A DNA stretch of 64,000 bases from Candidatus Dojkabacteria bacterium (GTDB taxonomy: Bacteria > Patescibacteriota > Dojkabacteria > GCA-002793355). The notes under the pieces were generated by a model that was not told the origin of the DNA, did not search any database, and saw nothing but the letters and a program-made list of their open reading frames with translations. The DNA lies in NCBI GenBank assembly GCA_030583825.1, contig CP129477.1, positions 960,221 through 1,024,220 of the forward strand, given 5' to 3'. Position numbers and translations under genes: made by a program. This document shows, one piece after another, positions 1,295-57,710 of the stretch. Each line of letters starts with the position of its first letter. Positions within the stretch are counted from its first letter, which is position 1.

Positions 1295-1481
1295 ACTCGC
1301 ATTATACTCTCATTGAGTGTGAGGTTAAAGTGAAGCAAAGTTCCAGCCCCGGTGTAGTCTTTGAAAAGTGTCCACACCGGGAAAGGAGTAATTCAGTTAT
1401 TCTTCGTTATCGGGTTCGTCATCGCCGAAAGGAGATGGAATGAAAATATTTGGGACAACTCTTTCTGTGAAAATAAAAAAA

Positions 1482-1687
1482 TGGGCGGTATTGGGCTCGG
1501 TCACCTCGCATTCTTACCTTGCCTGATAAGTATGCTCCTCGATAAGGTTACTTCGTCTTCATTGAACATCGATAAAGTAAACTTTATCTCTCGAAAAGCA
1601 AATTGTTGCTTTTCGCCCCATTCCTCTCGAAAAACGCAAGGTCACTTGCCTTTTTCTCGGGTTTCTCGCCAATGAAATATATAACAG
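1482..1687 (-). repeat. tRNA-3'-flanking conserved element, copy 1, bounded distally by an 18-nt direct repeat of the tRNA-Val 3' end
   Basis: tgggcggtattgggctcg occurs at both 1482-1499 and 1688-1705. The intervening 188 nt shares ordered sequence blocks with copy 2 at 39225-39373: ctcggtcacctcgcatt, atgctcctcga and ctcggg(t/c)ttctcg(t)cc. It also contains an A-run/hairpin/T-run module carrying compensatory changes. Confidence 0.6.
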
Positions 1688-1761
1688 TGGGCGGTATTGG
1701 GCTCGAACCAATGACCTCTTCAATGTCAATGAAGTGCTCTAGCCAGCTGAGCTAACCGCCC
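1688..1761 (-). tRNA. tRNA-Val (anticodon GAC)
   Basis: The reverse complement is GGGCGGTTAGCTCAGCTGGCTAGAGCACTTCATTGACATTGAAGAGGTCATTGGTTCGAGCCCAATACCGCCCA. It shows a canonical cloverleaf with a 7-bp acceptor stem, a GTTCGAGCC T-loop and the anticodon loop TTGACAT. Confidence 0.9.
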
Positions 1762-11070: not shown

Positions 11071-12283
11071 GAGGTTTGACTCAGCAAAAATTTATTCGAT
11101 TATTGCACAGGTTCTTGCTCTTGGTATTGGATACGTCGCGCAGTTGATTCTGTTTGTATTACTTACAGAAAAAGAGTCATTTAGTCATTTTCAGCTGACA
11201 AACTTTACGACAAACTTACTTGGACTTTTTGCCGGTTCGGTTATTCCAACACTCTTTTCTGCAAAAATAAGTGCACTGAGTGAAAAAGACGCAAAAAGCG
11301 AGCTACAGAAAATAGTTCTTCCATATATTGTCGTTCTTCTTGGTCAGACTGCATTATTGTATGTGCTATTTGTTGGGTTAAATATTGCTCAAGGAATTGA
11401 TTCATACCGATTATTGCTTTTTATTCTCTCAAGTGTGCAGGTACTTGCGTTTTCTGTAATGAACCTTTTCCATATGTACTTTATAGGCCGACGCGATTTT
11501 AAGACATTTGCAATCTTCTATACATTGTACGGTGCGATTAAATCGTTTTTTGTACTTGCTGCAGCATTTATGTTTAACAATGCTGAAGCAATCGTTGTTG
11601 GTATTTCGCTTGCATCAGTGCTCCATTCGCTCATTATTTTGTGGTACTTAAAGGTCAAACCGGAGATCACTATTTCTTTTGAGGCACTTATTCCATATAA
11701 AAAGAGATTTTTGGATCAACTTATTGCAAATCTCGTAATGTTTGGGATCTTAAATATTTCTTTTATTATTGCGTACTTCAAAATTCGCACAGACTACGAC
11801 ACATTTAACCTGATTACCCTTGCTCAACCAATTGGACTTGTTCCCTATTATGTCGTGTCATCACTAGGAAATGTATATATGATTGATTTTGCAAATGGAT
11901 CAAAGAAAGCAACAGATATTGTAAAAATCATTACCCGGATGTTTGCATTGCTTATTGTCTTTTCAATTCTCACTCTTGTTGCAGCTGCTGTTGTTTTTAC
12001 CATTTTTAACAGAGCTCCTGTTGGTCTTTTGCTACAATATGTCATGATTATGTTTCCTTCAACGATGGCAATTTCACTCATCAGTGTGCTTTTATCAATT
12101 TACCAAGGGCTAGGAGAACTATATAGACTGAGAGCTATTGTACTTGTGCTTATTCCCCTGTATCTTTTAATATCGCTTCTGCCTGTTACAACAGAGCAAC
12201 TTATTCTTATTACAGGTGGTGTATATCTTGGTATTAGCGTGTTTATTACATTACTTTCGCGAAAGATCTCATGGAAACCGTAA
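11021..12283 (+). CDS. Polytopic membrane protein, putative oligosaccharide flippase (Wzx/MOP-like)
   Basis: About 12 predicted TM helices over 420 aa, embedded in a glycosyltransferase cluster. The 5' end overlaps the upstream gene, so an alternative start lies near 11048. Confidence 0.4.
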   Translation: MIGKLFQSNMKMFSFLKRFDSAKIYSIIAQVLALGIGYVAQLILFVLLTEKESFSHFQLTNFTTNLLGLFAGSVIPTLFSAKISALSEKDAKSELQKIVLPYIVVLLGQTALLYVLFVGLNIAQGIDSYRLLLFILSSVQVLAFSVMNLFHMYFIGRRDFKTFAIFYTLYGAIKSFFVLAAAFMFNNAEAIVVGISLASVLHSLIILWYLKVKPEITISFEALIPYKKRFLDQLIANLVMFGILNISFIIAYFKIRTDYDTFNLITLAQPIGLVPYYVVSSLGNVYMIDFANGSKKATDIVKIITRMFALLIVFSILTLVAAAVVFTIFNRAPVGLLLQYVMIMFPSTMAISLISVLLSIYQGLGELYRLRAIVLVLIPLYLLISLLPVTTEQLILITGGVYLGISVFITLLSRKISWKP

Positions 12284-13827
12284 AAACCTTATTACAATCG
12301 GCAAAGAGCTTTTTCGCGAATAATGTCGCAGCAATACTCGTGGCACTCTGTTTTGTTGCAATTTTATGGTCAACAACATTTGTATCTGAATTACCTTTTA
12401 AAAGCTATGGAGATGTTTGGGCTCACCTCGCGTTTGTGGAAGAGCTAAAAAAGCCTCTCGAAGAAGTAGGAGATCCATACTTTAACACTGGAAGTCGCGA
12501 CCCTCACAATGGAATTTATCCCGTCGCAATTGCAAAGATCAGCCAGGCAACAGGAGTTTCACATATTTTTCTTATGCAAATCTTTGGAATTATCAGCTTT
12601 GTCGCAGTCTATTTAACAGCGATTGTTGCCTACAGAACCTTTTTCCCTGATAGAAAAAATAAGCACATTGATTCTATTGTTTTAGGTATAGTCATGTTCT
12701 TAGGATGGGAAAGCTATCGTTTGTCGTATGCGGGGTATTTCTCACTTGCAGATATTGCTATTGGAATTATGTTCCCGCATTTATTTGCACTAGCATTGTT
12801 TAATCTTGCTATTACAGCTTATTACATTGTTCTAAAGCGTCAGAAAGAGAAAAAACCTATTCAAAAAACAATTGTTATTCAACTGATCGTTGCTTTTTTA
12901 AGTGCAGCAATTTTATTAACACACGTTATTACCGGAGTTATTTTAATGTATACATTCCTCGTATTTACTGGTTACTACTTCTTGTTTGAATATAAGCTCC
13001 GTCCACCGTTTGTATTTTTCTTAAATGCAATTATCCCTTTGTTGGCTGTAATTCTCTGTCTTTTCTGGCCATTTTATAACTTTTTAGATCCATTCACTAA
13101 ATTGCAAACAATTCACACTGAATCACCAATTTCCTCAATTTTCGAAATGAGAGACTGGTTTGCAGTTGCAGCAATTATGCTTGTTGGGGTATTTAGCGCT
13201 CTTGTCGCTAAAAATAGACTTATTACGATATGGTTTTTCTCTGTATTATTTGTTCTTGCCTCTTACCTCTACCCTGTTCGAATCTCTTCATATTGGAGAT
13301 TTTTCCCGGTTACATTGTTATCTCTCTCTTTTTTAATGACCTATTGGACATCATCGCTAAACCGCACAATGAGAACATTTATTCTCTTTATGATGCTGCT
13401 TTTCGGCTTCTCCAGTTTTGTTAACAAAGTTGACACTATTGGATATCGTCAAGCCGTAACTCCTGTGTCATTTGATTTTCTAAAAGAGGTTCCGTCGGAC
13501 AAAATGATTCTTTCTGACCCGGAAACTTCGTACTTATTTAGCGGAATTACTGGCCATGCAGTGCTTGTTGTAAATAAAACTCACTGGAACCCAGCAAACC
13601 ACGTTATTTCAGAAGAAAGATATAAAGATTCGCTCGCGTTCTGGCGGGAAAATGACGAAACTGGGTCACCGTACGTAATTGATAAATACAATATTGAGTA
13701 CGTTTTGATCAATAAAAAGATTTATAGAAACTTTAACGAATATGCTGTTATGCTTGGCTCAAAGTATAAAATGAAAGAATTATATCAGGATAAAAGTTAT
13801 CTCTTACTTCAGATTATTCAGGATTAA
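12271..13827 (+). CDS. Polytopic membrane protein, putative GT-C-type glycosyltransferase or polymerase
   Basis: More than 10 hydrophobic helices with an acidic first extracytoplasmic loop (VSELPFKSYGDVWAHLAFVEELKKPLEE). Sits inside the glycan cluster. Confidence 0.35.
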   Translation: METVKTLLQSAKSFFANNVAAILVALCFVAILWSTTFVSELPFKSYGDVWAHLAFVEELKKPLEEVGDPYFNTGSRDPHNGIYPVAIAKISQATGVSHIFLMQIFGIISFVAVYLTAIVAYRTFFPDRKNKHIDSIVLGIVMFLGWESYRLSYAGYFSLADIAIGIMFPHLFALALFNLAITAYYIVLKRQKEKKPIQKTIVIQLIVAFLSAAILLTHVITGVILMYTFLVFTGYYFLFEYKLRPPFVFFLNAIIPLLAVILCLFWPFYNFLDPFTKLQTIHTESPISSIFEMRDWFAVAAIMLVGVFSALVAKNRLITIWFFSVLFVLASYLYPVRISSYWRFFPVTLLSLSFLMTYWTSSLNRTMRTFILFMMLLFGFSSFVNKVDTIGYRQAVTPVSFDFLKEVPSDKMILSDPETSYLFSGITGHAVLVVNKTHWNPANHVISEERYKDSLAFWRENDETGSPYVIDKYNIEYVLINKKIYRNFNEYAVMLGSKYKMKELYQDKSYLLLQIIQD

Positions 13828-26801: not shown

Positions 26802-28046
26802 CTACGCAACTGCAAGTGGGTATGCCCACGCAAAAAGATCGCGGACAAGTCTATTCTCCATAAACATTCTGTACGCTGTGTTGTAATGGTTCTTTATAGC
26901 GTATCGTATTCCAGGAATATGAAGCATTGCCATAGACTTCTTTTTAATGTGATGAATCGTACTAAATTTGAACTTCTTCGCATATCGTAGTGGTTTCAGG
27001 CGAGAAATATTCAAATTGTGCCATATACCCCTGGAGGTATACTCACTGCCCTTGATCATGGGGTTTACATTAAAATGCTCTGCTTCAGAAAGTTGCATAA
27101 CAAAATCGTTATACGAAAATTCTGAGTCATATCCAATCCCAATTTTATATGGCAATACGTAAATAGGCGTATTTAAGTTCATTGCTAGTTTTTGCACATA
27201 TCTATTCCCTTGTTTGCCGGTCGTGTTGGGAAATGAGTGGTTTTCAATAAGAATATAGTCCAAATGTGGTGCAAGTTGCCCAAGTGATGAACCATAAATA
27301 TATTCATTTTCTTTTTTGGGATCAAAAGTATTAACTCCAAATTGCATATTAATTGACTTAGCAACACCTTGGAGTTCACTGACAAATCCTGTTGTACTGT
27401 TTGTCCGAAATTTCAAATATTCAGCCGTAATATGAGGATCTTTTTCAAAATCTCTTGGAATTTCGTGCCCTGATGACTGCTTAAACTTTTGAGAGCATAT
27501 TTCACATGCACATCCGGCAAAAACAAATGGCTTATTGTTGTAGTATAAAGGCATGCCAAGTTGTCCCATTTGGATATTATCAATAAAAATTCCCGAAAAC
27601 CCTGAATCTTTCAAACTGAGAATTTTCTGTGCCGTAAAATCCCGATACTCTTGAGAATTTACGCACACAACATCTCTATTGCGATAATACGAAACGTTAC
27701 GATTATTATGATCCTTTGCATACCATTTCTTGTCTTCAAATCCCTCTCTTACGACATTAGGGCCTTGAATATACGCATGTACTTTTATTCCAAGTTTGTG
27801 AAAGTTTTTAAGTCTCGAAAGAATGAAAGAATAATCTTCTTTTTCTATATTTGGATGAAATCCCCATGAATAAGTTACCCAATAATCGGTAACTCCAAGA
27901 ATATCCTGTGTTCGTGCGATGTAGTCGTAGTCATACGACTCAAGGAGGCTTTGTTCATTAATTTTAGGGGAGAAGAATTTTGTATGGATCATTCGAATTG
28001 TTCCGGGGCCTGCCCAGCAGTAGTATCCTACTGACTTTTTCTGCAT
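26802..28046 (-). CDS. Hypothetical protein, putative TIM-barrel glycoside-hydrolase-like (GHL/GH114-like) enzyme
   Basis: Alternating beta/alpha pattern with conserved acidic residues (GIKVHAYIQGPN, GIFIDN). No confident family assignment is possible. Confidence 0.3.
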   Translation of the reverse strand: MQKKSVGYYCWAGPGTIRMIHTKFFSPKINEQSLLESYDYDYIARTQDILGVTDYWVTYSWGFHPNIEKEDYSFILSRLKNFHKLGIKVHAYIQGPNVVREGFEDKKWYAKDHNNRNVSYYRNRDVVCVNSQEYRDFTAQKILSLKDSGFSGIFIDNIQMGQLGMPLYYNNKPFVFAGCACEICSQKFKQSSGHEIPRDFEKDPHITAEYLKFRTNSTTGFVSELQGVAKSINMQFGVNTFDPKKENEYIYGSSLGQLAPHLDYILIENHSFPNTTGKQGNRYVQKLAMNLNTPIYVLPYKIGIGYDSEFSYNDFVMQLSEAEHFNVNPMIKGSEYTSRGIWHNLNISRLKPLRYAKKFKFSTIHHIKKKSMAMLHIPGIRYAIKNHYNTAYRMFMENRLVRDLFAWAYPLAVA

Positions 28047-37230: not shown

Positions 37231-37268
37231 ACTGAGGCATCTGCAGCCCCCTGCCGCACAATACTCAG

Positions 37269-37342
37269 TCGGGGAAACAGGACTCGAACCTGCGACCTCT
37301 ACTTCCCAAAAGTAGCGTTCTAGCCAACTGAACTACTCCCCG
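37269..37342 (-). tRNA. tRNA-Pro (anticodon TGG)
   Basis: The reverse complement is CGGGGAGTAGTTCAGTTGGCTAGAACGCTACTTTTGGGAAGTAGAGGTCGCAGGTTCGAGTCCTGTTTCCCCGA. Anticodon loop TTTGGGA and a GTTCGAGTC T-loop. Confidence 0.85.
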
Positions 37343-37390: not shown

Positions 37391-38494
37391 GTGATACAAT
37401 TTCTCATGTTTATTCCGACATATCATTATAATTTATTCGCCTATCTAGGGACAAAAAGAACTCCTTTGCCAAAGAATATTGCACGAGAATTTTACCTTTC
37501 CTGGGAAGATGCCCTCTGGGATTTACTAAAAGCAAAACGTATCCCCAAGGGAAGTAAAGTGCTTGTTCCGAGTTTTCACTGTTTAGACGTAATGAATAAT
37601 ATTGCTGCACATGGGTATCCATGCGAAACATATGAGGTTGATAGAAATTTCGCTACTACTCCACAGCTGGTACTTGAAGCACAGCAAAAACATAATGCGA
37701 AGGTTATTGTCGTTTTTCATACTTTAGGAATAAAAAATTCATTATTCCAAGACACTTCCTGGATAAATCAACTACCAAAAGACGTAATTATTATTGAAGA
37801 TGCTGTTCATAGGGTTATAGAGCCGTCCAGGCTTACAATTTTGGGCCAAAACCACTTTATTTTAGATAGCTTGAGAAAAGTGACACCACTGCAAGGAAGC
37901 TTTATTTACGGCCTTCCAGAGGCTTTGGACTATAAAAAAACACCGACTCAAAAAGCCTTTTGGTACCAGTTAAAAGGCGTATATTACTTTGTAAAGTTTC
38001 AATGTATGCTTTCCATTGCTGCAATATTGCAGTCACCAAAAATAGTCAAAAAGGCAGAAAAAGTACTTACAGTTCATGACGACCATATTGGAGATAATGA
38101 AATATCGGGCAGAAACTTTGGGATATTCAGCTTTTTTCAGCGATTTTTAGACTTTAAAAAGATTCGCAAGATAAAACATTATCAAGCAACACATTACGAA
38201 AACAGGCTTTTCCCAATGCTTGAGCAGAGTAAGTCGTTTTTTAGAATTACTGTTTCGGAAGAAGATAAATCTGAACTACGCGGATATCCCATTGGACTTG
38301 AAGGAGAGTTTGCAGATGAAGTATTAGCTTTTTTGAGAGAGAATGATGTTCTTTTAACCTTTCATTTGAAGGATTGCGAGTGGTGTCAAAACAAAAAAGT
38401 GATATTTCTTCCGATGGGGCCACATATAAACATGCAGCAAGTTGAATATGTCTGTAGTGTGATTGAGAAATACTGTGTTACACAAAGTTCCTAA
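37391..38494 (+). CDS. DegT/DnrJ/EryC1-like PLP-dependent sugar aminotransferase, diverged
   Basis: DegT-like spacing of VLVPSFHC, IIEDAVHRV and SLRK (candidate PLP Lys). Similarity is weak. Confidence 0.4.
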   Translation: MIQFLMFIPTYHYNLFAYLGTKRTPLPKNIAREFYLSWEDALWDLLKAKRIPKGSKVLVPSFHCLDVMNNIAAHGYPCETYEVDRNFATTPQLVLEAQQKHNAKVIVVFHTLGIKNSLFQDTSWINQLPKDVIIIEDAVHRVIEPSRLTILGQNHFILDSLRKVTPLQGSFIYGLPEALDYKKTPTQKAFWYQLKGVYYFVKFQCMLSIAAILQSPKIVKKAEKVLTVHDDHIGDNEISGRNFGIFSFFQRFLDFKKIRKIKHYQATHYENRLFPMLEQSKSFFRITVSEEDKSELRGYPIGLEGEFADEVLAFLRENDVLLTFHLKDCEWCQNKKVIFLPMGPHINMQQVEYVCSVIEKYCVTQSS

Positions 38495-38828
38495 AATACA
38501 CTTTCCAAACGTAGCCCTTATCTTCTGTTGGCGTTTGTAAGTAAAGTGTTTCCCCAACATCCAATGTTTGCTGACGGAAACCTCCTTGTGTATCAATTGT
38601 CCCTGGATAATCAACTTCACTAATCTGTACGCCAGTATTGTTAAATACTGTAATTTCATTGTTTCCAAATTCGACCCGCAACTCTCGATCAATCGAAGCA
38701 TCTCCTTCCATTTGAATCACCTGCCCATCGTCGGTGTAATGTTCTTTAATTGAAAGTACCTGCTGTGCGATGCCAGCACTGGATTTTTGCCAAAGATAGG
38801 TTTCTATTACAATAAATGCTTTTGCCAT
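38478..38828 (-). CDS. Small hypothetical protein, paralogue of 38828..39184
   Basis: Start codon overlaps the upstream stop (TAATG). Shares G/T-rich beta-like segments with its neighbour. The track ORF extends to 38858. Confidence 0.45.
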   Translation of the reverse strand: MAKAFIVIETYLWQKSSAGIAQQVLSIKEHYTDDGQVIQMEGDASIDRELRVEFGNNEITVFNNTGVQISEVDYPGTIDTQGGFRQQTLDVGETLYLQTPTEDKGYVWKVYFRNFV

Positions 38829-39184
38829 TATGACAATGAGAGTAATGTTACTTCCCAACTCGCTCCCCGCCCTTCTTCATTATACACGAACAATAATGAA
38901 TCTCTTTCTGCAATTGTGATATTTGTAAAATCCCCTTCGCCTGGACTAATTGCTTGTCCTGGAGTATCCAAGAGGTGCGGTTTCTTACTATCTGATTCAA
39001 TATGTACGGATAAAAGCCTATTCATTATTGAAATTGAAAATCGGAATTGCTCGTCGTGGAATTCAAGTATGAATCCTCCTCCATCTATGGCAAGAATTTT
39101 GTAAGGAAGTTCTGCCTTAGTAATACGGGAATTTTTATAGCTTTTTGTCCAGAGGGTTCGTGTTACTTGTAATAATGCTGACAT
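38828..39184 (-). CDS. Small hypothetical protein
   Basis: 118 aa. The start lies about 34 nt downstream, in minus sense, of the tRNA-Leu-linked element. Confidence 0.45.
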   Translation of the reverse strand: MSALLQVTRTLWTKSYKNSRITKAELPYKILAIDGGGFILEFHDEQFRFSISIMNRLLSVHIESDSKKPHLLDTPGQAISPGEGDFTNITIAERDSLLFVYNEEGRGASWEVTLLSLS

Positions 39185-39214: not shown

Positions 39215-39373
39215 AGAGGACTCGGTCACCTCGCATTATACCGAAGATTAAGGAATGCTCCTCGACCCCATCCACTCGCTTCAAACAGTAATTGTACTGT
39301 TTTTGCTCGGGCTTCTCGTCCATCATTAAACAATTAAGGGAATCCGGATAAAAATTACCCTGATTCCCTTAAT
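39215..39373 (-). repeat. tRNA-3'-flanking conserved element, copy 2, bounded distally by a 10-nt direct repeat of the tRNA-Leu 3' end
   Basis: agaggactcg occurs at both 39215-39224 and 39382-39391. The interior shares the ordered blocks of copy 1 (see 1482..1687). Confidence 0.6.
39318..39367 (-). terminator. Strong hairpin and T-run immediately 3' of tRNA-Leu
   Basis: In minus sense: TTAAGGGAATC-(17-nt loop)-GATTCCCTTAA followed by TTGTTTAATGA. Confidence 0.5.
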
Positions 39374-39457
39374 GCCGAGAAGAGGACTCGAACCTCCACA
39401 CCCTCAACGGGCACAACGACCTCAACGTTGCGTGTCTGCCATTCCACCACCTCGGCG
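39374..39457 (-). tRNA. tRNA-Leu (anticodon GAG), class II with long variable arm
   Basis: The reverse complement is GCCGAGGTGGTGGAATGGCAGACACGCAACGTTGAGGTCGTTGTGCCCGTTGAGGGTGTGGAGGTTCGAGTCCTCTTCTCGGCA. Anticodon loop TTGAGGT. Confidence 0.85.
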
Positions 39458-41435: not shown

Positions 41436-42665
41436 TTAGCACAGCTCGGTTTCCCATACCTTTGTTTTGTTACGTAGTGCTAATGCAAGAATCATCGAAT
41501 TTCTGGAAGTCCATGAGTGATTATGTCTATCTATACCGCTCAGTGTTTTTGTCGTAATGACTTCAATTGCGGGCATATCATTTTCTGCGCGTTGCTGGGC
41601 AAAGGCATTTGCTGTCTCTGTAACTTTGGCAACAGGGAATACTCCATCTTTTTGTGAAAGGATAATTGTGATCGGCGCATCTATTCGATCATTTTCCTGC
41701 TCCAGGATATTTTCAGCGCATCGGTGAGCAAGCCAAGGCATAGTTTTGTGAGGTTTAATAATCGCATCGTCGCCTACAGCGTTAACAATAATTGTTCGGT
41801 TTTCATAATCTCGAAGCACTCTTATTGTGTCCATTCCGAAGCCTGCTGCAATACCAAGAACTCGTAACCTGCGAATCCCTTGCCTTTTAGCTAGGTAATG
41901 ACGTTTATCTATCCATTCGGGGACATTTCTTTCTTCTTCGGGAATGTAGTCAAAACCTGGATAAACTCCAGCGGGACTAACAAGGTGTAATCCATTTAGA
42001 TTCATCTTTCCATTGAGCTGACCTGCTGCTCGCATAGCGATTGCTGCGCCGGCAGAAAACCCAAGCATATGAACCTCACCTGTATATTGCTCATTTTGTG
42101 CGGCCCAGCGCTCGTGAAGCATTCTTTGGTCTTGCTGCAACAGCTTTGAAACAATTTCTCCATCTGCCGAAAAAGAACCATAAAGCTGCTCATAGCGTTG
42201 CAACTGTGTTAAGTATAATGGATGCAAATGCTCGGAGTATGGATCTCTTGCAGTCATGCCGGTACTTAGCATTGACGGAATTGCCACAACTCGATAGCCA
42301 ACAGCTGCGAGAGCACAGATTTCTGCGCTTGCATTGTCTGCGCCAGCAATACCACCACCAAAAAAGTAGAGTGTTTGCTGGTTTGGATGAGGGTTAATAT
42401 TCACCTCGATTGCATCGGCATGTACCTCTCCAAATCTTGTTTTTGCAACTAGTTCATGACGCGTATGTTGGCTTTGAGGGTGTTTTTCTGGGCAAGGCTT
42501 CGCCTTTCTTGCTTCTGTAAAGGCATCATACGCCTGTTCTAAACGTTCTTCGAGTTCGACAGAAGTGAGAGTTGTATGCAGTTCAGTGGGCAATGGAGCA
42601 ATTCGGTCTGTAAGGATCTGTTCTTCAATGTCATAGTATTTTTGGTTAACTACCCGATTTTTCAT
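41436..42665 (-). CDS. Hypothetical alpha/beta-hydrolase-like protein
   Basis: GxSxG elbow (GFSAGAA) and an oxyanion-like FFGGGIAG. GC content is visibly higher than neighbouring genes. Confidence 0.35.
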   Translation of the reverse strand: MKNRVVNQKYYDIEEQILTDRIAPLPTELHTTLTSVELEERLEQAYDAFTEARKAKPCPEKHPQSQHTRHELVAKTRFGEVHADAIEVNINPHPNQQTLYFFGGGIAGADNASAEICALAAVGYRVVAIPSMLSTGMTARDPYSEHLHPLYLTQLQRYEQLYGSFSADGEIVSKLLQQDQRMLHERWAAQNEQYTGEVHMLGFSAGAAIAMRAAGQLNGKMNLNGLHLVSPAGVYPGFDYIPEEERNVPEWIDKRHYLAKRQGIRRLRVLGIAAGFGMDTIRVLRDYENRTIIVNAVGDDAIIKPHKTMPWLAHRCAENILEQENDRIDAPITIILSQKDGVFPVAKVTETANAFAQQRAENDMPAIEVITTKTLSGIDRHNHSWTSRNSMILALALRNKTKVWETELC

Positions 42666-56969: not shown

Positions 56970-57710
56970 TTACGATATAACAATTTCAGGGAAGTTTGCA
57001 CGACTCCAATTCCATAATACCGGATGCATATCAATGGGCAGAATATTTGTTCCTCTGAGAGCTTCATCCCACGCAACTGCAACTTTTTCAGGAGCCGCAA
57101 CTCCTGGAAGAATTCCAAGCCTTACAGTGCTTTGAATAACATGCGTATCAGGAATAATCGTAACTTTATGCATGTTTCGTAAGCTGACATCAGTAAAATT
57201 ATGCAAAATGTACAGCCAGTAATTGGCCATTTTTTGCCCCGAAAGATAAGGAAACTGCTTTTTGTGGCTCACTTGCAAAATATTTTTAATGCGTACAACG
57301 CATGATTGCCCCTGTTTTATGATAAGACGTGGATCACTATCATAATGTTCGGCTAAAGTTTTGGAAATTGCTAACCAAATGTCTGTATGTCGGTTACTTT
57401 GCAATGCAAGACGATGTTTCACAAGATCCTTTATTACCTGTTCCCGTGAAACATTTGTTACCCTCTCAGGAAAGAACACATAGTTAGTTTCAGGATCATT
57501 AAATGTTTCTAACGCAGACTTCCACATCGCCGGAGAGCTTCGCTGATAGTTAATACTTACCGGCAAAGTAAAATATAAATACCTGAGTCGTTCTGATTTG
57601 TCTAGTTCGGGATGAACTTCATGCTGATGCGTTCTTGGAATAAGGCCAGTATCAAACATTTCTTTCAAAGCAATGATTCTTTTCTGAATATCACCAAGTT
57701 CATGAGACAT
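56970..57710 (-). CDS. HhH-GPD-superfamily glycosylase-like protein (Ogg/AGOG-like signature)
   Basis: Helix-hairpin-helix with a candidate catalytic Lys (YLSGQKMANYWLYIL), followed by the conserved Asp motif (IIPDTHVIQ). Confidence 0.45.
   Translation of the reverse strand: MSHELGDIQKRIIALKEMFDTGLIPRTHQHEVHPELDKSERLRYLYFTLPVSINYQRSSPAMWKSALETFNDPETNYVFFPERVTNVSREQVIKDLVKHRLALQSNRHTDIWLAISKTLAEHYDSDPRLIIKQGQSCVVRIKNILQVSHKKQFPYLSGQKMANYWLYILHNFTDVSLRNMHKVTIIPDTHVIQSTVRLGILPGVAAPEKVAVAWDEALRGTNILPIDMHPVLWNWSRANFPEIVIS

Follow-up and report, generated by a model that had tools for sequence, protein, structure and literature searches.

Within a 64-kb stretch of DNA from a Candidatus Dojkabacteria bacterium (WS6, candidate phyla radiation (CPR)/Patescibacteria; hereafter W), which was analysed as a whole and is referred to as the window, we observed a family of short elements linked to tRNA genes. 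Two copies lie behind the genes for tRNA-Val(GAC) and tRNA-Leu(GAG), share the same ordered sequence blocks and end in a repeat of the 3′-end of the respective tRNA gene, and further copies are found in a sister species (R). The family is real, non-random and tRNA-linked. The explanation that we favour, tentatively and with somewhat less than even confidence, is that each copy is a miniature, non-autonomous integrative element of the size of an attP site, which uses the tRNA T-loop as its attachment site. Its membership in the integrative elements is incomplete, because the defining recombinase was not found.

The comparison comprised species R, whose MutL, SufS and ORF118 proteins (ORF118 being the 118-aa open reading frame (ORF) next to the Leu copy) are 82%, 76% and 78% identical to those of W, and more distant relatives with MutL proteins 53% and 47% identical to that of W. 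Four copies of the element were available, namely W-Val, W-Leu and the two units E1 and E2 at the tRNA-Leu gene of R, three of which are full.

Repeats of the tRNA 3′-Ends Bound Both Copies

The Leu copy (39215-39372, minus strand) is colinear with the Val copy (1482-1687). On the tRNA strand the order is tRNA, variable trailer, block A, an A-run/hairpin/T-run module, blocks B and C, a spacer of 17-21 nucleotides, block D and the tRNA 3′ repeat. Blocks A, C and D are exact matches in the same order at both loci, as the original prediction had stated, and its claim that two different tRNAs carry related cargo-less insertions ending in their own 3′-termini was likewise borne out. The Leu locus comprises the following features.

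39373-39456, minus strand: tRNA-Leu(GAG), intact (ARAGORN; Rfam tRNA, 47.5 bits); also found in the sister species
39373-39390, minus strand: proximal copy of the repeat, the last 18 nucleotides of tRNA-Leu
39333-39372, minus strand: strong trailer stem-loop, at the Leu locus only (arms 39333-39351 and 39355-39373, 19 nucleotides)
39306-39321, minus strand: block A, GGACGAGAAGCCCGAG on the tRNA strand, with two CGAG motifs 10 nucleotides apart
39283-39304, strand not assigned: A-run/hairpin/T-run, a bidirectional module resembling an intrinsic terminator (-8.9 kcal/mol, z = -3.8)
39266-39279, minus strand: block B, GCGAGTGGATGGGG on the tRNA strand, aligning with CGAGAGGAATGGGG (Val) and TGAGCGGAGAGGGG (R, sequence L094)
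39255-39265, minus strand: block C, TCGAGGAGCAT on the tRNA strand, identical at the two window loci and in E2 of L094
39221-39240, minus strand: block D, TATAATGCGAGGTGACCGAG on the tRNA strand; its final CGAG is common to the block and the T-loop
39215-39224, minus strand: distal repeat of the 3′ part of tRNA-Leu, CGAGTCCTCT, 10 nucleotides

The corresponding features of the Val locus are these.

1687/1688-1761, minus strand: tRNA-Val(GAC), intact (ARAGORN, Rfam)
1688-1705, minus strand: proximal copy of the 18-nt repeat, within tRNA-Val
1482-1687, minus strand: whole Val copy (nhmmer with the three-copy alignment, E = 6e-31)
1671-1687, minus strand: trailer
1656-1670, minus strand: block A
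1631-1654, minus strand: terminator hairpin, 3′ of block A
1616-1629, minus strand: block B
1543-1615, minus strand: insert of 73 nucleotides between blocks B and C with two hairpins, at Val only
1532-1542, minus strand: block C
1496-1512, minus strand: block D
1482-1499, minus strand: distal 18-nt repeat of the tRNA-Val 3′-end
1410-1426, minus strand: degenerate second block A, GGCGATGACGAACCCGA, beyond the distal repeat, aligned by MAFFT with the block A behind tRNA-Val of R

The repeat consists of the tRNA's own sequence from the CGAG in the T-loop to the discriminator base. At the Val locus, 18 of 18 nucleotides are identical (1482-1499 and 1688-1705); by chance such a match within 250 nucleotides is expected at roughly 250/4^18, about 4e-9, and the repeat is thus not explained by coincidence. 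At the Leu locus, agaggactcg occurs twice, as originally noted, at 39215-39224 and at 39381-39390 (not 39382-39391). The gap between the two is 156 nucleotides, and the distance from the tRNA end to the distal copy amounts to 148 nucleotides instead of the 149 first given. CGAG, four of these ten positions, belongs to the shared block, and the other six are tRNA-specific bases at the homologous position (4^-6, about 2e-4). In R, the full 18-nt Leu repeat is found at that homologous position, together with 10 nucleotides of trailer. The perfect match at Val, the six bases in register at Leu and the full repeat in R exclude chance as the origin of the repeats. Moreover, W lacks a DUF1801 gene that in R lies between E2 and a pair of small ORFs, and the distal Leu repeat of W stops after CGAGTCCTCT at exactly that point; most simply, the 10-nt repeat would be an 18-nt repeat cut by deletion of the DUF1801 region.

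At the proximal junction the tRNA gene is intact, as full tRNA calls were obtained with ARAGORN and Rfam, and at the distal junction block D abuts the repeat in three of the three full copies. An intact tRNA gene, a displaced copy of its T-loop-to-3′-end segment and an abutting block D together constitute the signature of site-specific integration at an attB site in the T-loop.

It is extremely improbable that the two loci display only generic promoter and terminator features of tRNA flanks plus a fortuitous repeat. Such a view can point to a more distant relative, in which the hairpin AAAAAGGCAA-N6-TTGCGTTTTT follows both tRNA-Leu and tRNA-Pro and the other blocks are missing. Against it, blocks A, C and D are confined to the element loci, three of five tRNA loci are devoid of the blocks, and the 18/18 repeat is not a product of chance. 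Blocks A to D were absent behind tRNA-Pro, tRNA-Gly and tRNA-Trp of both W and R and are therefore not a generic feature of tRNA flanks; the presence of the blocks at most tRNA loci was what the original prediction had named as a finding that would speak against it.

Conserved Blocks and a Terminator-Like Hairpin

The element measures ~110 bp from block A to block D and about 150-190 bp between the direct repeats including the trailer; the bounded segment of 148-188 nucleotides contains no ORF. The core of block A (consensus on the tRNA strand GGMCGAGAARCCCGAG), CTCGGGYTTCTCG, is found as an exact match at 1656-1668 and 39306-39318 and nowhere else in the window, and is identical in E2. The tRNA-strand consensus of block B is CGAGNGGAWTGGGG. 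Block C, read as ATGCTCCTCGA, is exact at 1532-1542 and 39255-39265. For block D (tRNA-strand consensus AATGCGAGGTGAC), the only sites of the 17-mer CTCGGTCACCTCGCATT are 1496-1512 and 39221-39237, and a search of the window allowing up to three mismatches returned two matches versus 0.09 expected. Between the copies, blocks A, C and D do not vary, in contrast to the spacers and the hairpin sequence; the blocks thus look constrained, a pattern expected of functional sites. In addition, CGAG occurs on the tRNA strand 6-7 times per 200 nucleotides in both copies, versus a window mean of 0.48, a density that is reached nowhere else in the 64 kb. The majority of the motifs match CGAGRWG and are located in blocks A to D.

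The internal hairpin is symmetric and terminator-like, with a stem of 5-6 bp. In the Leu copy, each of the five stem pairs differs in both bases from the Val and L094 copies, and the pairing is preserved. The hairpin folds stably in all copies and is scored as a terminator at Val. Joint folding had been proposed as a means to reveal conserved structure; it yielded this hairpin with its five compensatory pairs, and beyond it no supported consensus was obtained on either strand. A strong hairpin directly behind the tRNA, as initially described, holds for Leu, where the trailer stem-loop folds at -21.8 kcal/mol (z = -6.1) and is ~85% conserved at 12032-12072 of L094, and fails for Val, where the hairpin follows block A (1631-1654). 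The 73-nt Val insert is flanked by CGA and folds at -17.5 kcal/mol (z = -5.4). No similarity beyond chance was found when this insert, segment X of L094 and the flanks were compared with the fetched loci. Terminal inverted repeats were absent from the element, in which the only inverted repeats are the internal hairpins.

A near-identical hairpin, AAAAAGGCAA-N6-TTGCGTTTTT, was observed ~48 nucleotides behind Leu, Pro and Val tRNAs in three species with unrelated flanks. The sites are located at 12861-12890 and 14933-14962 of L095 (the relative with 53% MutL identity), at 1631-1654 of the window and at 12271-12294 of L094. In the 53% MutL relative, the hairpin module, AAAAAGGCAACTGACGYTGCGTTTTT, stands ~48 nucleotides behind tRNA-Leu and tRNA-Pro without the other blocks. 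The AAAAAGGCAA-N6-TTGCGTTTTT hairpin may form a separate small family of repeats. Within this bacterial group, the internal hairpin is thus a terminator that recurs behind tRNA genes; what is specific to the element is the terminal repeat together with blocks A, C and D.

The Family in the Sister Species

In R, tRNA-Leu (L094, 11948-12033) is followed by two tandem units. The first, E1, is diverged, consists of block A, hairpin and block B, and closes with 14 nucleotides of the tRNA 3′-end; the second, E2, has the full series of block A, hairpin and blocks B, C and D and closes with the complete 18-nt CGAGTCCTCTTCTCGGCA and the 10 nucleotides ttctcataaa, which likewise follow the tRNA fragment of E1. 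The tRNA-Val gene of R (L106, 9785-9858) is followed by the trailer and block A only, without hairpin, blocks B, C and D or repeat. In the more distant relatives we found no repeats of tRNA ends within 10 kb, and the flanks could not be aligned. The occupancy therefore differs between the genomes: R has block A only and no repeat at Val and two tandem units at Leu, and the distant relatives have no repeat.

An alignment of blocks A to D gave 82% identity between W-Val and E2 of R-Leu, 62% between W-Leu and E2, and 61% between W-Leu and W-Val. Copies at different tRNAs are hence closer to each other than copies at the same tRNA, which indicates that the unit moved or was exchanged between tRNA loci.

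These comparisons bear on the idea that the copies are independent scars of large islands or prophages, each deleted down to its two ends and without mobility of its own. The attL/attR-type anatomy would fit such scars, and the tandem layers of L094 and the degenerate additional block A at Val suggest that these sites were visited more than once. However, the internal junctions A-hairpin-B-C-D are identical in three of three full copies, where independent deletions would differ, and the Val copy is 82% identical to the Leu copy of the other species. Colinearity of blocks A to D in three copies, at two tRNAs and in two species, argues against independent decay of large islands, and we consider this explanation quite unlikely. 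The additional block A at Val could represent an older layer or else the native trailer.

A Promoter-Like Box in Block D

Block D contains a -10-like box exactly 10 nucleotides before the tRNA fragment, reading TATAAT in W-Leu, TAGAAT in R and AAGAAT in W-Val. The same spacing of 10 nucleotides separates TATAAT from the mature 5′-end at three of the three window tRNA genes. Furthermore, many window genes have a TATAAT, TACAAT or TAGAAT (TAnAAT) box 4-7 nucleotides before the start codon and no Shine-Dalgarno sequence, which suggests that leaderless transcripts may be widespread in W. Examples are given below.

TAnAAT boxes: 1296-1306; at the starts of 26802-28046, 32592, 41436-42665 and 56970-57710

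Judged from the sequence, an outward promoter that reads across the junction from the block D box is plausible.

The box and the hairpin also figure in a reading without mobility, according to which the loci are fixed local rearrangements: the tRNA 3′-end and trailer would have been duplicated by microhomology-mediated template switching or illegitimate recombination at CGAG (T-loop versus block D), and A-hairpin-B-C-D would be a terminator-plus-promoter cassette that insulates the tRNA from the next gene and is kept similar by gene conversion or DNA uptake from relatives. This view accommodates the internal hairpin as a good bidirectional terminator and a TATAAT or TAGAAT at the spacing of real tRNA genes, in a genome whose -10 boxes lie close to gene starts. 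It also draws on the resemblance of the Val trailer and block A to the native-looking trailer of R and on the CGAG microhomology at every junction. However, for the same D-to-T-loop junction to arise at two tRNAs and in two species, the process must have been site-specific or no fewer than three events must have coincided. Each copy is followed by a different gene with a promoter of its own, block C does not provide a -35 element, and three other tRNA loci are without the blocks. We regard a local rearrangement as unlikely, if worth keeping in mind.

Alternatively, the locus could hold an RNA gene, instead of or besides a recombination footprint. Three versions are conceivable: (a) the trailer up to the hairpin is released as a small RNA in which the conserved block A is active; (b) the -10 box of block D drives a transcript that starts with the last 18 nucleotides of the tRNA, as a tRNA-fragment minigene or a guide-like RNA that brings the element to that tRNA; or (c) the plus strand is transcribed into an RNA that is antisense to the tRNA 3′-end over 18 nucleotides and likewise terminates at the hairpin. 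A conserved block beside a terminator hairpin with compensatory changes, the exact 10-nt spacing between box and fragment, and a terminal fragment that in every copy corresponds to the local tRNA, even where the copies are closely related, speak for an RNA; so would the 86% complementarity of block A of L094 to the tRNA-Leu 3′-end and trailer, except that it is not significant alone and is absent at Val. On the other side, there is no Rfam match, the hairpin is the only supported structure on either strand, the plus strand has no conserved promoter, no nuclease or transposase gene lies nearby, and a scaffold 3′ of the fragment would fall in the non-conserved flank when integrated. Such a gene thus appears improbable to us. 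As to the complementarity itself, block A of L094, GAGAAGCCCGAGAA, pairs with the tRNA-Leu 3′-end and the first trailer bases, TTCTCGGCATTCTC, the sites being 12154-12167, 12258-12271 and 12362-12375.

A more daring proposal goes one step beyond version (b). The element would then be a self-contained homing unit, gene-less and RNA-guided or templated by a tRNA fragment, whose terminal 18 nucleotides are a programmable or templated copy of the target and no integrase scar; transcribed from the block D box, an RNA starting with the stretch from the T-loop to the 3′-end of the tRNA would direct or prime insertion behind that tRNA with an enzyme acting in trans. This would explain near-identical bodies at tRNA-Leu in one species and at tRNA-Val in the other, each with the matching fragment. 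We consider it very improbable.

Searches for Partners and Known Identities

Inspection with Pfam of 28 window proteins revealed no integrase, nuclease or transposase gene near the element. A scan of genome contigs for the pattern of the element returned one chance match in a high-GC coding region, a metagenome scan 77 chance matches, all coding or high-GC, and scans of IMG/VR nothing or chance matches only; blastn against phage and plasmid collections gave no match. An autonomous relative that uses the same att site was likewise not found in the collections, the scans or the flanks of the relatives.

Several other identities were discarded. With regard to a known RNA, the Rfam gathering threshold returned only the three tRNAs from the whole window, and hits at E <= 10 in both element regions were noise. 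A degenerate tRNA gene was considered on account of block A, a 'TTGAG' stretch and GGGGTCGAG, which to the eye seem to follow the order of tRNA-Leu; local alignments did not outscore those of shuffled sequences (best p 0.024 among 16 tests of the element against tRNA-Leu and tRNA-Val). A peptide gene was rejected as well: a plus-strand ATG in block C opens 24-codon ORFs in W-Leu and L094 without a ribosome-binding site, the 73-nt Val insert is not a multiple of 3 and shifts the frame across block A, and the changes in the hairpin are compensatory.

A Model for a Possible Miniature Integrative Element

We return to the miniature, non-autonomous integrative element as the preferred explanation. 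The bounded DNA is gene-less, has approximately the size of an attP site and shows the same architecture in all full copies, which leads to this reading. The element would consist of two fused attP arms. The tRNA-proximal arm would supply the new tRNA 3′-end, the trailer, block A and the terminator hairpin, which would stop the tRNA transcript; the distal arm would comprise blocks B to D. Candidate (arm-type) binding sites of the recombinase are the CGAGRWG-type motifs that stand as direct repeats in blocks A to D, and the -10-like box of block D may serve as an outward promoter reading across the junction. For its movement the unit would rely on a trans-acting integrase from a related element of full size. 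What the sequences show is the anatomy, the repeats, the presence of the family in a second species, the occupancy differences and the closer similarity of copies at different tRNAs; that a recombinase acts at such binding sites, that the promoter is active and that the element is still mobile is what we infer.

A number of observations weigh against this model. Neither an integrase nor a recombinase was detected by Pfam in about 30 window proteins or in the gene tables of related loci, and searches of IMG/VR, of phage and plasmid collections, of genome and metagenome scans and of 10 kb on either side of the loci in relatives, which did not extend to the complete genome of W, revealed neither a full-size relative nor an attP. 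At Val, R does not offer a clean empty site, as its trailer and block A resemble the proximal side in W. The tRNA-proximal arm is locus-specific and unrelated between Val and Leu, and a change of target needs an arm swap. Moreover, a circle of ~200 bp is a difficult substrate for recombination. A sigma-70 promoter made up of blocks C and D was not called by a promoter scan and lacks a -35 element. Finally, the comparison rests on four copies only.

Genes Next to the Elements

Two small ORFs lie downstream of the Leu copy.

38828-39184, minus strand: ORF of 118 aa (ORF118)
38478-38828, minus strand: ORF of 116 aa, with a TAATG overlap with ORF118

ORF118 is identical to the NCBI protein QY314_04675 (Candidatus Dojkabacteria). 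The distal Leu repeat ends 30 nucleotides before its ATG, where ~34 had been reported. The two ORFs had been described as translationally coupled paralogues; the TAATG overlap is present, and the paralogy is weakly supported (BLASTP E = 0.066). Neither of them has a Pfam match. Among 5.8 billion proteins, ORF118 has one other homologue cluster, that of R (78% identity); the pair is carried only by W and R and is absent from the 53% MutL relative. In R the pair is syntenic, and a DUF1801 gene on the opposite strand (L094, 12392-12784) separates it from E2. Synteny in R and the distribution of the pair rule out the ORFs as cargo of the element. The suggestion that they are a passenger module or are regulated by the element does not hold in view of the separation in R, the unrelated genes beside the other copies and the TACAAT box that ORF118 itself has 5 nucleotides before its ATG. 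The two ORFs are a conserved, genus-restricted local pair, neighbours that lie outside the element.

The genes 3′ of the other copies, SufS at Val and the 3′-end of the DUF1801 gene at R-Leu, are mutually unrelated. DUF1801 genes were seen beside tRNA loci twice, namely at 12392-12784 of L094 (in R only, absent in W) and next to tRNA-Gly in both species (L105/L106, 14253-14660, and L112, 4529-4981). The window as a whole consists of ordinary housekeeping genes, among them MutL, RNase HII, L19, a SufS-like cysteine desulfurase, BipA and glycosyltransferases. It contains three tRNA genes, Val(GAC), Pro(TGG) and Leu(GAG), all on the minus strand (ARAGORN, Rfam), of which the following has no copy of the element.

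37268-37342, minus strand: tRNA-Pro(TGG) (ARAGORN, Rfam)

The Leu locus is unchanged on contigs from seven sequencing runs. At Val, short-read contigs of independent runs end inside the copy, at 1541, 1541, 1545 and 1521 on the SufS side and at 1638 on the tRNA side, and the stretch with block B and the 73-nt insert was left unassembled; one contig begins at 39232, in block D of the Leu copy. The breaks of Logan contigs on both sides of 1546-1637 are a weak hint of heterogeneity at best. The contig breaks in the copies could reflect strain polymorphism or additional copies of the element at other places in the genome; single-nucleotide polymorphisms or low coverage would explain them equally well. 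Two independent contigs, L002 and L003, both end inside tRNA-Pro at window position 37297.

Discussion

It is well established that tRNA genes are classic landing sites of phages and genomic islands. To our knowledge, the known occupants of such sites are kilobases long and carry their own integrase, and almost nothing is known of the mobile DNA of the Dojkabacteria, a CPR lineage. The unusual aspect of the loci described here is that the bounded DNA, at 148-188 nucleotides, is gene-less and retains the same internal architecture at two tRNAs and in two species.

In several respects the anatomy corresponds to that of integrative elements, with a repeat from the T-loop to the 3′-end and an intact proximal tRNA gene, and departs from it in that no integrase gene is found inside. 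Mycobacteriophage Ms6, integrated at tRNA-Ala, has a core of 26 bp that includes the 7-bp T-loop, and class II integrases target the T-loop (PMC1762012). The genomic islands at ssrA of Dehalococcoides have a core of 20 bp, and cis-mobilizable elements (CIMEs) are mentioned for tandem ssrA islands (PMC3146451). As in these systems, an intact RNA gene is followed by a direct repeat of its 3′-end, of 18-28 nucleotides here versus the 26-bp and 20-bp cores; the repeat starts in the T-loop, a conserved motif of the element end adjoins the distal repeat, and tandem layers occur at one site. Unlike in these systems, only 110-190 bp lie between the repeats, with neither an integrase nor any other gene, one element body occupies two tRNA species, and no autonomous relative was found.

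A second point of comparison is provided by the CIMEs, which are defined in the literature on integrative and conjugative elements (ICEs) of Streptococcus as integrated DNA that keeps functional attL and attR sites and encodes neither recombination nor transfer. The present element likewise keeps attL/attR-type repeats, has no genes for recombination or transfer, would presumably be mobilised in trans and stands in tandem with related units. Known CIMEs, in contrast, are kilobases long and carry cargo, whereas the element described here is about the size of an attP site and has spread as such.

The Correia elements of Neisseria are miniature repeats of the type of miniature inverted-repeat transposable elements (MITEs) that carry terminators and outward promoters. 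The element resembles them in being small, non-coding and multi-copy and in combining a terminator-like hairpin with a promoter-like box. It differs in that it is strictly tRNA-linked, and we rejected a MITE on the grounds that terminal inverted repeats and a short fixed target duplication are lacking; the repeats of 10-28 nucleotides are long and tRNA-specific.

Outward promoters at the ends of integrative elements that are active across the joined ends after excision are known from Pcirc of ICEclc and from the junction promoters of insertion sequence circles. The -10-like box of block D points outward across the attachment repeat in the same manner; the promoter is putative and, unlike in these cases, the element has no gene to drive.

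If the ordinary reading is right, the loci represent a modest addition to a well-known theme. If the attL/attR anatomy, the constant architecture and the changed tRNA target hold, the element would be the counterpart of a MITE in the integrase world, and the family would point to an integrative element or phage that is active in the Dojkabacteria and has so far escaped notice. In practice, the units separate a tRNA from the gene behind it by a terminator and a promoter-like box and break short-read assemblies at tRNA loci, and they may serve as ready-made minimal att sites for genetic tools in the CPR.

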